Origin: a virus
Taxonomy: Duplodnaviria > Caudoviricetes
Virus record (IMG/VR): IMGVR_UViG_3300013382_000001
Location: 1 to 64,000 of that record
Direction: 5' to 3' (one strand)
Length of the DNA: 64,000 nucleotides
The notes under the pieces were generated by a model. The model saw only the letters and a list, made by a program, of their open reading frames with translations, had not been told where the DNA came from and ran no database searches. The translations under genes and the position numbers were made by a program. Within the stretch, counting starts at the first letter, position 1, and the number at the start of each line of letters is the position of its first letter. This document shows positions 3,246-64,000 of the stretch, one piece after another.

Positions 3246-4295
3246 ATGCTTGGTAAGACAAATGTAAAAATTATTAAAGCGAAACCTACTTTAGGTTCAA
3301 AATGGCAAAAATCAGTTACAACGCCAACAATGTATAAATGCATCGACATTATGAATAATAGAATGACAGCTGTTGGATGGGGGGGGGCATATTATTCAGA
3401 TGATGGTGGCATAACCTTTCTACAAGCAAGTAGTACAGGGTTTGATGATGTAGAATATAATGATGGATTATTATTAAGTGTTTCTAGCTATTTGCCTGCA
3501 GGCGGTGGAATTTGGCAGTCAACGAATGGAGAATCTTTTAATTTAGTAGAGGATTCTACAATATGGGGCTATAATGATTTTATTCGAGGAGCAGGCAATC
3601 AATGGCTTATAGGATTATTTAGGGGAGGCGCTGACAGCACTTACGAAGCAACTACAAGTGAAATGAAGGATATTCCCCCAGATTTAAGTTCAACAGAACA
3701 ATCTATAGACCATTTTATCAAAGCTTTAAACACAGACCCAACAATTTGGGCTTATGATGCTGGTGATTATCTTGTTTTTTCTTCGCCGACAATATTTCAT
3801 GATACATACTTTCGCGTTAAGGCAAGAGGATCTATTACGGACGAAATATTGTCTTATGATGTTGTAAAATTTAATCATCTTTATATAGTTGGTACTTCAG
3901 AAGGGATACATTATACAGCTGATGAACTGAATTTTTCAACTTATGCCGACTTATCTTTTACACAATCTAATATCTCGAGTGGCACTATTTACAATATCCA
4001 TGCATCCGATAAAACTTGTATTGCAGTTGGAACGGATATATGGCGGTCAACCGATGGTAAAACTTGGACTGCTTTGGGTATTTCGGGTTCAACATTTAAA
4101 AAGATTTGTTCTGATGACAATGGTATTTGGGTTGCAGGTGGAAATAAGGGTGCATTGTACTATTCAAATGATGACGGTGTCACATTTACAAAAGTTGAAG
4201 ATTTGACAACGGCTAACATCTACTGGATTCATTATAATAAAAAATTTAAAACTTTTGTAATTTGTACAGCAGATGGTATTTATTATAGTAAATAA
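3246..4295 (+). CDS. Asp-box/BNR beta-propeller protein, candidate receptor-binding module with in-frame G9 tract
   Basis: Asp-box motifs YSDDGGITF, WQSTNGESF, WRSTDGKTW, YSNDDGVTF; N-terminus MLGKTN; G9 at 3379-3387. Confidence 0.7.
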   Translation: MLGKTNVKIIKAKPTLGSKWQKSVTTPTMYKCIDIMNNRMTAVGWGGAYYSDDGGITFLQASSTGFDDVEYNDGLLLSVSSYLPAGGGIWQSTNGESFNLVEDSTIWGYNDFIRGAGNQWLIGLFRGGADSTYEATTSEMKDIPPDLSSTEQSIDHFIKALNTDPTIWAYDAGDYLVFSSPTIFHDTYFRVKARGSITDEILSYDVVKFNHLYIVGTSEGIHYTADELNFSTYADLSFTQSNISSGTIYNIHASDKTCIAVGTDIWRSTDGKTWTALGISGSTFKKICSDDNGIWVAGGNKGALYYSNDDGVTFTKVEDLTTANIYWIHYNKKFKTFVICTADGIYYSK

Positions 4296-50534: not shown

Positions 50535-50565
50535 TAAAAACAACAAAAAAAAGGAGTACATGATT

Positions 50566-50962
50566 ATGATAGGACGGGCTAATATATTAAATAATGTTTC
50601 GGGGGGGGGGGGGGGGGGATCATTGTTGATATCAAAAAGGATATAGACCTTCCAATCAAAGTTGATTTTATACCAACATTTGTTGGTATAAATGATAAAA
50701 CATATAGTGGGTAACTCTTTCGAGATTTATATTAGGTTGTAGTGATGTATACATTATAAATACTGATTTACCTCAAAGTATTTTGTCGGAAGATGTTCAT
50801 ATATCTTATAAATTTACTGACGCGTTAGATTATAGAACTAAAATGATTTGGGTGTATTCAACCACATCTCAAATGTTGAATAGGTATATCGATAACGGAT
50901 CTATATATTCAATATCGCCTATGTCTGATATAGATTTCTTACTTATATGTCAAACGAATTAA
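50566..50962 (+). pseudogene. G18-interrupted small tail-tip gene (phase-variable, OFF)
   Basis: RBS AAGGAG, MIGRANILNNVS then G18 (50601-50618); stops at 50644; other frames give IIVDIKKDIDLPIKVDFIPTFVGI and an open frame 50708-50962. Confidence 0.65.
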
Positions 50963-61831: not shown

Positions 61832-63139
61832 TTATTTTTCAAAATCTACTCTTTCTAATGCTTTTTCAAAGGCACCGATTCCACTAAATAAACTTATGAC
61901 ATTCATCCCTGTTATAAAGTCATTAGGATAAGCATCGTGTAAACATTTGTATATCTCTTCAAGCACATTTACGACAATAGAGTTACCTGCTTGTTTGTAG
62001 AGCTGTGAATTACTATTAACCTTTTTGGCTCTCTCAAAGTCCTCATCGCTAAATACCATAAGTCTATAACATTCTTTTGGAGTAAGTTTACGGATTCGGA
62101 AATCTTTTGGCGTTAATACTTTGGGTTGTCTATTTCCACCTTCCATTGTGTTAAGTGTTGGGGATAAACCATCTGAACCATAAACCCTACGAATCTGCTC
62201 ATTTCCCTTTATATCTAATAATCCAAGCATTTGAATTTTATTATGCTCATTTTCACATAATTCACTCACACTAAATGCTGACTTATTTGTATCTATCTGT
62301 GGTGTATTGATAAAAAACTGGTCTACTTTATCTTGTTTAATGTAGTACCTCTCTTCAACCTCATTTTCAAGAAAATCTCTTAATCTTAATCCATTATCAA
62401 AAGGTTTCGGGAATAAACTCGTATCATTTCTATCATAATACTTATTATGTGTGATGTGTCCTGTATAATTTTGGTTATTATCAACATCTTCACGCACAGA
62501 AATAGCATAAATACGCTCTCTATTCTGTGGAATATCATAATTTTTCGCATTTAACACTTGATAATAAGTATTATACCCCATATTTTTCATCTCATCAACA
62601 TAAGTATCAAATACAGGTTTGTGTTTTTTAGATAAGACATTTTTAACGTTCTCCCAAATAACGAATTTTGGTTTACAATGTCTGATAATCTCGACCGAAT
62701 TCCATAAGAGGCTTGAACGAGTTCCAGAACTCTTTACTCCACCATGCTGCTTACCGGAAATTGAAAAACTTTGACAAGGCGATCCGTGTGTAATCAAGTC
62801 AATATTGGTTGGCAGTTTATCAATATCAATCTGTGTAATATCACCAAGATTTAATCTTTCATCTACTCCATGTATAGCACAATAACTCTTTACCGCATAC
62901 TTATCAAATTCACAAAAATTCACTAAATTATAATTCATTTTATACTCCTTATATTCTTTTTTATTATCTTTGCCATTTGTATGACTATCTTTTAGGAGTA
63001 CCCCCCCCCCCCCCGAGCAGCATATCCCACCACAGTTTGCTGTAGTTAGTGTAGTACAAATACCATGAGATAAATCAATTAAATCATATGGCGCAAACAC
63101 ACTTGGAATTTTGCCATACTTATCTATCATTTCTTTCAT
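61832..63139 (-). CDS. Circularly permuted C5-cytosine DNA methyltransferase; internal start at 62938; G14-linked N-terminal TRD-like module
   Basis: FCEFD, GSPCQ, ENV, PQNRER, RKLTPKEC, QAGNS, and motif I SLFSGIGAFE at extreme C-terminus; C14 at 63001-63014 on + strand. Confidence 0.9.
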   Translation of the reverse strand: MKEMIDKYGKIPSVFAPYDLIDLSHGICTTLTTANCGGICCSGGGGVLLKDSHTNGKDNKKEYKEYKMNYNLVNFCEFDKYAVKSYCAIHGVDERLNLGDITQIDIDKLPTNIDLITHGSPCQSFSISGKQHGGVKSSGTRSSLLWNSVEIIRHCKPKFVIWENVKNVLSKKHKPVFDTYVDEMKNMGYNTYYQVLNAKNYDIPQNRERIYAISVREDVDNNQNYTGHITHNKYYDRNDTSLFPKPFDNGLRLRDFLENEVEERYYIKQDKVDQFFINTPQIDTNKSAFSVSELCENEHNKIQMLGLLDIKGNEQIRRVYGSDGLSPTLNTMEGGNRQPKVLTPKDFRIRKLTPKECYRLMVFSDEDFERAKKVNSNSQLYKQAGNSIVVNVLEEIYKCLHDAYPNDFITGMNVISLFSGIGAFEKALERVDFEK

Positions 63140-63157
63140 CTTTCTTTCAATCCATAT

Positions 63158-64000
63158 TTATTCTTCCTCCACATCTACATAAGCACTAAGTATATATTCA
63201 AACTCCCCACTTAGCACCCATTTGTCATTAACTTTTTTTCTTTTTTCCTTCGGCTTAAACACGCACTTCATAATACCGCCCATCACATATTTGCCGATAT
63301 TATCTTTTGGTAACGGATGCTCTTCAAAGTATTTCTTATCCATCTTACATTCAATCACACCACCATCATAGAGCCGATAAAGTTTAACAAATGGTGTGCC
63401 ATACTTATTGACTTCGACCCCTTGTAGCGCAAAATAATTCATCGGTGCGCTAAGTGTAGTGAGCATTGTATATCCCATAATCTCGATTTGGTTTTGGATA
63501 AGGGCATATTCACTATCTGGTGGAATGGCATGTTGAGCGAATATCTTGCGACAAAGTGCAAGGTTGTCAAGCTGCGAATATTGTTTTGCGGTTTCTTTAT
63601 CGAAACAACCTTCAACATCAAAGTCGCATGGCTTCTTGAGCGTCTTCTTTGTACCATAGGTGTTGTAGATTTCCTTAGCTATGGTGAGCTGGTTAATTGT
63701 GCCAAATTGGGCAAAGTAGCCGATACGGATAAGTTTGTCAAGTTGTGTTTTGTTAATGCTTAAAGATTTAGCATTAGTCAAGATATCAAAGAAATCTTGC
63801 GGTTGTTCATTTTGTGCATACTCGTATAAGTTGTCACCAATTTGAATATTCATGTCTTTAATTGAGCCAATGCCTTTATAAATTGAATTTTCGCTTTTAT
63901 CCATCCAAAAGTCGCCTTTTGATTTACCAAATACAGGAGGTAAAATCTTGAATCCTTGTTTAATTGCATAATTTGTAATCGCTTGGCTTTTAAGTTTGTC
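63158..64000 (-). CDS. dnaE: DNA polymerase III alpha subunit, C-terminal part (runs off window)
   Basis: ILPPVFGKSK...IYKGIGSIK...LDKLIRIGYF; frame open to window edge. Confidence 0.8.
   Translation of the reverse strand, partial: DKLKSQAITNYAIKQGFKILPPVFGKSKGDFWMDKSENSIYKGIGSIKDMNIQIGDNLYEYAQNEQPQDFFDILTNAKSLSINKTQLDKLIRIGYFAQFGTINQLTIAKEIYNTYGTKKTLKKPCDFDVEGCFDKETAKQYSQLDNLALCRKIFAQHAIPPDSEYALIQNQIEIMGYTMLTTLSAPMNYFALQGVEVNKYGTPFVKLYRLYDGGVIECKMDKKYFEEHPLPKDNIGKYVMGGIMKCVFKPKEKRKKVNDKWVLSGEFEYILSAYVDVEEE

Follow-up and report, generated by a model that had tools for sequence, protein, structure and literature searches.

A putative poly-G contingency locus joining an N-terminal leader to a circularly permuted C5-methyltransferase in an uncultured gut phage

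Does a run of 14 G within the methyltransferase gene of a phage work as a switch and, if so, does it switch the enzyme itself or only a part attached to it? The question was raised by the window, by which the whole analysed stretch of 64,000 nucleotides is meant. It represents the first 64 kb of a 98,184-bp IMG/VR virus record (34% GC) with 89-bp direct terminal repeats, and its source is an uncultured gut phage with a virulent-type genome. Flanked by the end of a DnaE-like gene (HHH_6) and by a RecD-like helicase, a long ORF on the minus strand unites a leader, a linker and a C5-methyltransferase, with the run placed where leader and linker meet (Table 1). The G14 tract lies far beyond chance, since only ~3e-6 G/C runs of 14 nt are expected in a 98-kb genome at 34% GC (arithmetic from base composition). 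It is made up of the rarest Gly codon (GGG, 13%) and the rarest Arg codon (CGG, 5.5%) of the genome. Elsewhere in the whole genome, G/C runs of at least 9 nt are confined to G9 (3379-3387) and G18 (50601-50618), and a (CT)8 repeat is located at genome 76183-76198, outside the window. The G9 falls within ORF 3246-4295, the G18 stands immediately 3' of a short MIMIGRANILNNVS leader, which follows a fibre-like gene (window 50560-50646), and a C7 run was seen at genome 88064-88070.

Table 1. Features of the leader-methyltransferase locus, in positions of the window.
Feature	Positions	Strand	Basis
Long ORF, 435 aa: leader, linker and circularly permuted C5-methyltransferase	61832..63139	-	ORF list, Pfam PF00145
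Core methyltransferase, 368 aa: motifs II-VIII, TRD, IX, X, then I	61832..62938	-	motif positions, phmmer, AF2
Motif I (..ISLFSGIGAF..), displaced to the C-terminus	61847..61909	-	motif scan, AF2, phmmer
TL core of the internal TRD, SDGLSPTLNTMEGGN, residues 322-336	62132..62176	-	hhalign, phmmer
Lys/Asn-rich linker between leader and core	62939..62989	-	relatives' alignment, in-silico alleles
Internal Shine-Dalgarno (SD) AAGGAG, 6 nt before ATG 62936-62938	62945..62950	-	DNA; K-E codons conserved in all relatives
Stops in both alternative frames: TAA 62992-62994, TAG 62985-62987	62985..62994	-	DNA; tails of natural split alleles fit
Leader module, about 50 codons, conserved across the subfamily	62990..63139	-	alignment A1; fused and stand-alone homologues
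G14 homopolymer (C14 on the + strand), coding for a Gly run at the leader/linker joint	63001..63014	-	DNA letters
GGG where relatives have GG (GGTGG to GGTGGG), second-site +1	63026..63028	-	alignment of L082 with genome
TRD-core-like motif SHGICTTLTTANCGG, residues 24-38	63026..63070	-	hhalign vs family TRD profile
Start region: SD GGAGGA 63165-63170; DnaE-like gene stop 63158-63160; ATA 63155-63157; first usable ATG 63137-63139	63137..63170	-	window and L082 vs L083

The core has the features of a C5 methylase in an unusual order. Pfam PF00145 matched residues 69-398 to profile positions 21-320 (E 3.6e-69), and motifs IV (PCQ), VI (ENV), VIII (QxRxR) and X (GNS) were located at residues 121, 163, 205 and 385, respectively. 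Motif I (FxGxG) was found at residues 418-422, placed in the fold with its order permuted. A phmmer comparison with M.HhaI (E 8e-36) aligned query residues 76-396 with HhaI 39-314 and query residues 409-431 with HhaI 9-31. In the AF2 model (48-row alignment) pLDDT was ~90 or higher over most of the core and ~90 for strand 412-417 and helix 423-430, and the best Foldseek match of the model was M.HhaI as well (E 4e-18). Because motif I was found at the C-terminus and placed there by both phmmer and AF2, the enzyme is a complete, circularly permuted C5 methylase with motifs II-X followed by I. Unpermuted relatives, which read ...FSGIGAFEKAL..IEYELVGFSEIDKYA, show that the break lies between motifs I and II.

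Kinship with the multispecific methyltransferases of the SPbeta group was confirmed by tblastn, in which the nearest enzymes among GenBank phages were those of SPR, SPbeta-like phages, rho11s and H2 (67-69% identity over residues 72-110); blastn also matched rho11s. The TL pair of the internal TRD aligns with ..ITLSAYGGG.. in M.HhaI. The window protein has no tandem of TL modules between motifs VIII and IX but a single one, and its second TL motif is N-terminal; the relatives P0007 and P0017 have two internal TL modules. Whole TL modules are gained or missing in the internal variable region of enzymes otherwise 80-99% identical (P0007, P0012, P0017, P0028), a pattern of module shuffling such as multispecific methylases show. 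Many close relatives (P0132, P0021, P0023, P0026, P0027, P0030, P0032-P0036) carry inteins (PF07591/PF14890, some with LAGLIDADG) inside catalytic motif IV; in P0132 the junctions are GSP/C...HN/CQSF, which makes the catalytic Cys the intein's +1 residue.

As to the frames around the run, window tracts of G11, G14 and G17 read through in silico, while G(3n+1) leads to ...GYS-stop at the TAA and G(3n) to ...GTPKR-stop at the TAG, the stops being 2-5 codons past the run in the two out-of-frame states. The expectation that G14 is in frame and that one G more or less meets TAA or TAG within five codons was correct, with G13 running into the TAA and G15 into the TAG. A homopolymer of at least about 8 nt within an ORF and stops in both other frames, as are typical of SSR contingency loci, are both found here. 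A ribosome-binding site belonging to the core had likewise been predicted, and AAGGAG with an ATG is present. At the matching position L083 has GAGGAG, and no relative was seen in which the core lacks an SD/ATG of its own. Because this internal SD/ATG is conserved in every lineage, the enzyme would not be switched off, and the claim that the tract toggles the fusion of the leader and not the enzyme itself holds.

In the window clade (assemblies with at least 98% amino acid identity to the window protein; here the window and L082) an ATA is found where relatives have an SD-served start ATG (MWIERK...), and the leader start is shifted 18 nt downstream to a weaker ATG. Since the SD-served ATG of the family is mutated to ATA, the long form may be weakly made. 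The strong SD in the window clade now precedes a two-codon mini-ORF, ATG-GAT-TGA, in another frame.

The frame of the window allele depends on a second site. An extra G 12 nt upstream of the tract puts G14 back in frame, and codons 39-42 read ICCS in the window and YAAR in the family. Over 61.75-66.0 kb (4.3 kb) the window and L082 are nearly identical, and the only indels are a 3-nt tract difference and the extra G. The statement that G14 keeps the leader in frame is thus true of this window, but only through the extra G relative to its relatives, for G14 alone belongs to the lengths that are out of frame in the family. Two origins come into consideration for the extra G, suppression at a second site or a compromise in the assembly.

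Within the clade the tract was found at lengths of G9, G11, G12, G13, G14 and G18, where G11 was read from DNA (L082) and G9, G12, G13 and G18 were inferred from proteins differing only in Gly number, on the assumption that R = CGG and G = GGG, as in two DNA copies; all lengths are those of consensus assemblies, in which +/-1 is unreliable at long G runs. The leader is fused to the core in P0004 (YAAR-G2-VLL, 433 aa, G9), P0003 (two contigs, three Gly, 434 aa, G12), P0142-P0145 (three Gly, G12), P0002 (five Gly, 436 aa, G18) and the window, here by G14 plus the upstream +1. P0143, with YAAR-G12 on a 98,054-bp contig, shares the two core positions of the window protein at which most other clade members differ. 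Split alleles are P0005, which starts MLLGGGGVLL out of frame (G13), L082, a 108 kb DNA with GGTGGATATGCTGCTC-G11-TAC in which the leader ORF ends ...RGGGYS-stop, and P0146, a core-only 368-aa gene call on 10 contigs, L082 among them. P0006 comprises core-only gene calls of 368 aa; the proteins that the search returned for the clade (P0002-P0006) were 98-99% identical. Pattern scans of viral contigs and genome contigs gave no matches, and a metagenome scan gave two loci. Length polymorphism among near-identical genomes, with in-frame and out-of-frame states both present, is what distinguishes contingency loci, and tract-length variation, originally suggested as a check on reads, was observed in assemblies from G9 to G18, in fused as well as split alleles.

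Long G runs are error-prone, and one short contig (P0128, 520 nt) has a garbled tract, so that the differences in length might be homopolymer errors of sequencing or assembly on a sequence that is in truth fixed. However, lengths of 9 to 18 recur across independent JGI, ENA and Logan assemblies on contigs of 75-108 kb, which is far over +/-1, and the break is at the same place in diverged lineages too. Such an artefact is regarded as highly improbable.

More weight has to be given to a neutral origin of the variation. In the window clade ~9 contigs are fused and ~11 split, a ratio not significantly different from the 1/3 expected of unselected lengths, and this, together with the loss of the family start codon in the clade, would fit a neutral hypermutable tract whose leader is just an upstream ORF or a remnant that can be dispensed with, the core enzyme doing all the work. 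The G run would have grown by slippage from ancestral ..CGN GGN GGN.. codons and its length would drift; at most, the frame would tune translation of the core, by read-through versus termination 50 nt upstream. The composition of the run from the rarest codons of the genome, the further long repeats at gene starts in the same genome and the second-site, frame-restoring indel of the window allele all speak against drift.

Relatives beyond the clade bear on this as well. Members 58-79% identical (P0008-P0011, P0014, P0021, P0031, P0132) also have a fused leader, whose joint holds ..RGG.. and no longer Gly run. Searching for the leader by itself gave 10 clusters of stand-alone ORFs of 47-68 aa, nearly all of which stop soon after RGG(G); the tails read GTIKR-stop, GTPKR-stop, GTAKR-stop or GYS-stop, i.e. 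the two alternative frames of ..GVLLKD... An exhaustive profile search added further distant stand-alone leaders ending ..GGC-stop or similar (P0133, P0134, P0137, P0139). Twelve of 13 stand-alone leader ORF clusters break right after ..RGG(G), in either alternative frame (clusters listed: P0122-P0131, P0133, P0134, P0137, P0139, P0149), and core-side gene calls begin a few codons ahead of GGVLL (P0013, P0016, P0019, P0020, P0026). The stand-alone leader of P0126 reads past the G run and breaks in the A-rich linker (..YID/RKNIRRTR-stop), which suggests a possible second, weaker slippage site there. Four lineages (P0017, P0022, P0024, P0028; DNA seen in L083) present a clean deletion of the leader (MWIERKMKE/ENKMNYN), from which it follows that the leader is dispensable. 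The leader/linker joint is thus a hot spot of frameshifts throughout the family, and the leader is conserved yet dispensable.

The frequency of stand-alone leader ORFs (47-69 aa), and their strong SD in relatives, could also mean that the leader works in trans in both states, as a small subunit of its own like those of C5 methylases built from two polypeptides. A related idea is that slippage of RNA polymerase or ribosome yields both isoforms from any allele, long homopolymers being known sites of transcriptional slippage. Tract length would then be no binary switch. However, fusion is found in many lineages whose joint holds no more than ..RGG.., a sign that covalent attachment is of importance, and we consider both variants of this explanation improbable.

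The neutral explanation gains from the deletions in several lineages and from the absence of the leader in all more distant permuted relatives. It is at odds with a leader peptide that persists at 40-90% identity in split alleles and from one lineage to another, and with breaks that sit at the G run in all but one of the stand-alone clusters and not at random places. We judge it rather unlikely, though it is the foremost of the alternatives.

In IMG/VR, ~70 permuted relatives (about 40-50% identity) have no leader. They lend no support to the idea that the permutation had made the switch possible. The DNA ahead of these distant permuted genes conceals no leader in a different frame either; it is non-coding. 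A conserved non-coding element, found ~60-130 nt upstream of the start in distant permuted methylases from 90-160-kb IMG/VR phages (L009, L016, L028, L067, L070 and others), reads ..ttctaggataaa..gattgcgcaatc..taaagga.. and ends at what is probably a TTG start codon; it may act in regulation or form a hairpin.

What the leader contributes is the second part of the question. In its alignment (A1), 20 columns are invariant, and distant homologues can still be recognised at 40-50% identity. It is intact in split alleles, which argues against decay. Among fused forms the mean identity of the leader is 60% versus 77-84% for the core, and P0008 has a strongly diverged leader beside a core 91-95% identical; a leader that diverges faster than its core would behave like a variable, TRD-like region. 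When the leader profile was compared by hhalign with the last-TRD segments of the family, SHGICTTLTTANCGG was equated with SDGLSPTLNTMEGGN (P 2e-6, score 31.8), whereas 150 column shuffles scored 8.8 +/- 1.9 with a maximum of 16.6, and 0/150 reached 31.8. The resemblance to the internal TRD, on which the original prediction was built, is hence real, but short, as it spans 15 profile columns. With all 368 columns of the core profile as target, the leader profile again matched the internal TL core best (P 7e-4), and in the rho11s enzyme it matched all three TL cores and nothing else, with 9/15 residues identical to the first. A TL core with a flanking G..GG pattern in a module of ~40 aa, as expected of TRD modules, is present.

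Searches of 1.84 billion representatives and of the PDB with the leader profile gave no canonical TRD, only family members or spurious matches, and an ESM Atlas search with the leader gave a weak lead only. In the AF2 model (48-row alignment) residues 1-59 had pLDDT <50, with values <45 for the leader and no docking pose, and the internal TRD was <45 too; the missing confident fold of the leader is a further point for the neutral explanation. The leader is situated outside the VIII-IX variable region in which TRDs normally act, and no motif IX comes after it. Another origin, the leader as a decayed copy of the X-I junction and motif I left by tandem duplication, was rejected, as hhalign gave P 0.045 and a score of 16.6, equal to the best shuffle; weak similarity to the X-I junction is limited to the first 27 leader residues.

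The explanation we favour is a switch between isoforms. Slipped-strand mispairing in the poly-G at the leader/linker joint would change the reading frame. In one frame the leader would be joined via a flexible Lys/Asn-rich linker to the permuted C5-cytosine methyltransferase to give a protein of 433-436 aa; in the other two the leader would stop and the 368-aa enzyme would be produced by itself, starting at the SD/ATG ~50 nt downstream. The sequence and the natural alleles bear these steps out. The switch is taken as real because runs of many lengths, covering all three frames, occur in related phages, and as the leader of the split state would still be translatable (~50 aa peptide), the choice would be between fused and separate, not between present and absent. 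As far as sequences can tell, the locus would be a genuine contingency locus toggling an N-terminal appendage and not the enzyme, and that it is a real, selected isoform switch is considered probable.

The consequences of fusion are to be worded with more caution. The leader is predicted to carry the conserved TL core of a TRD that in size and type would match the modular ones of the SPbeta group. The fused isoform would most likely have altered target recognition, i.e. an added or shifted specificity, and the phage population would hold mixed methylation patterns versus varying host restriction systems. A change in recognition is plausible because the core is kin to the multispecific enzymes of the SPbeta group, because TRD modules are visibly gained and lost in the family, and because one multispecific enzyme is reported, by the title of the work cited in PMC8936443, with TRDs at separated locations. 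It is weakened because the leader is N-terminal without motif IX and dispensable, the ratio of fused to split is near random, and the SD-served ATG has become ATA. A second specificity of the fused form is accordingly put forward as a possibility that we hold to be doubtful. In its widest form the proposal would describe a 'phasevarion' of the phage's own, in which poly-G attaches and detaches a portable target-recognition module at a non-canonical N-terminus, sibling virions protect different sites and, with the other repeats of the genome, a coordinated bet-hedging against restriction and receptor variation results. This is a speculative and rather unlikely extension.

Phase-variable methylases in bacteria and poly-G switches in Campylobacter phages are known already; the present locus combines an SSR contingency locus with a modular phage C5 methylase, and a literature search, incomplete in coverage, found no phage methylase gated by a repeat-run fusion switch. 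If true, a repeat-gated, recognition-like module on a phage methylase would mean that phages also randomise their own epigenetic protection, and it would provide a natural test of whether a TRD works when tethered outside its usual variable region. As fused, split and deleted natural alleles occur in the family, the comparative experiment is already laid out.

Among known systems, the poly-G study in Campylobacter phages reportedly deals with receptor-binding proteins. By its title it connects hypermutable polyG tracts with phenotypic diversity and evasion of bacterial resistance (Sorensen et al. 2021, Cell Rep 35:109214; ref 58 of PMC12823448). Judged by this title, the systems are alike in that a phage-coded G run in coding sequence gives rise to subpopulations with different products, and the present phage also has its G18 and G9 near tail genes; here, in contrast, the phage is an uncultured one from the gut and no Campylobacter phage, the gene with the run codes for a DNA methyltransferase that remains expressible, and what is toggled is a module at its N-terminus.

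The multispecific C5-methyltransferases of the Bacillus phages SPR, phi3T, rho11s and H2 have tandem TRDs (PMC8936443, citing Wilke 1988 and others). Common to them and the present enzyme are a related core, the TL motif of the leader, and internal TRD modules gained or lost in relatives. However, their motifs follow the canonical order with TRDs in tandem between VIII and IX, whereas motifs II-X precede I here and the extra module is N-terminal, without a following motif IX, and poly-G-gated. To our knowledge, no repeat switch has been described for these Bacillus phage enzymes. A multispecific C5 methylase with TRDs at separated locations is known by title (Sethmann 1999, EMBO J 18:3502; PMC8936443 ref 59). 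As its title has it, this enzyme is a precedent for TRDs that need not be contiguous in the variable region. We know of no phase variation in it.

Permuted motif orders have their own parallels, and in M.BssHII motifs IX-X are said to precede I-VIII. Circular permutants of C5 methylases, both natural and engineered, are on record (M.BssHII, Xu 1997; Albert 2018; both as cited in PMC7544214). As far as these citations go, a complete motif set in permuted order is shared with the present enzyme, in which, unlike there, only motif I was moved, to the C-terminus.

Bacterial phasevarions, finally, comprise Type III mod, Type I hsdS and Type IIG methyltransferases (PMC12707154, PMC4889913). Slipped-strand mispairing in a homopolymer of a methylase gene is the common element, leading to methylation heterogeneity there. 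In bacteria the enzyme is turned ON or OFF, or HsdS halves are swapped, in a cellular genome, whereas in the phage genome an appendage would be toggled and, because the catalytic core has its own start, only this appendage.
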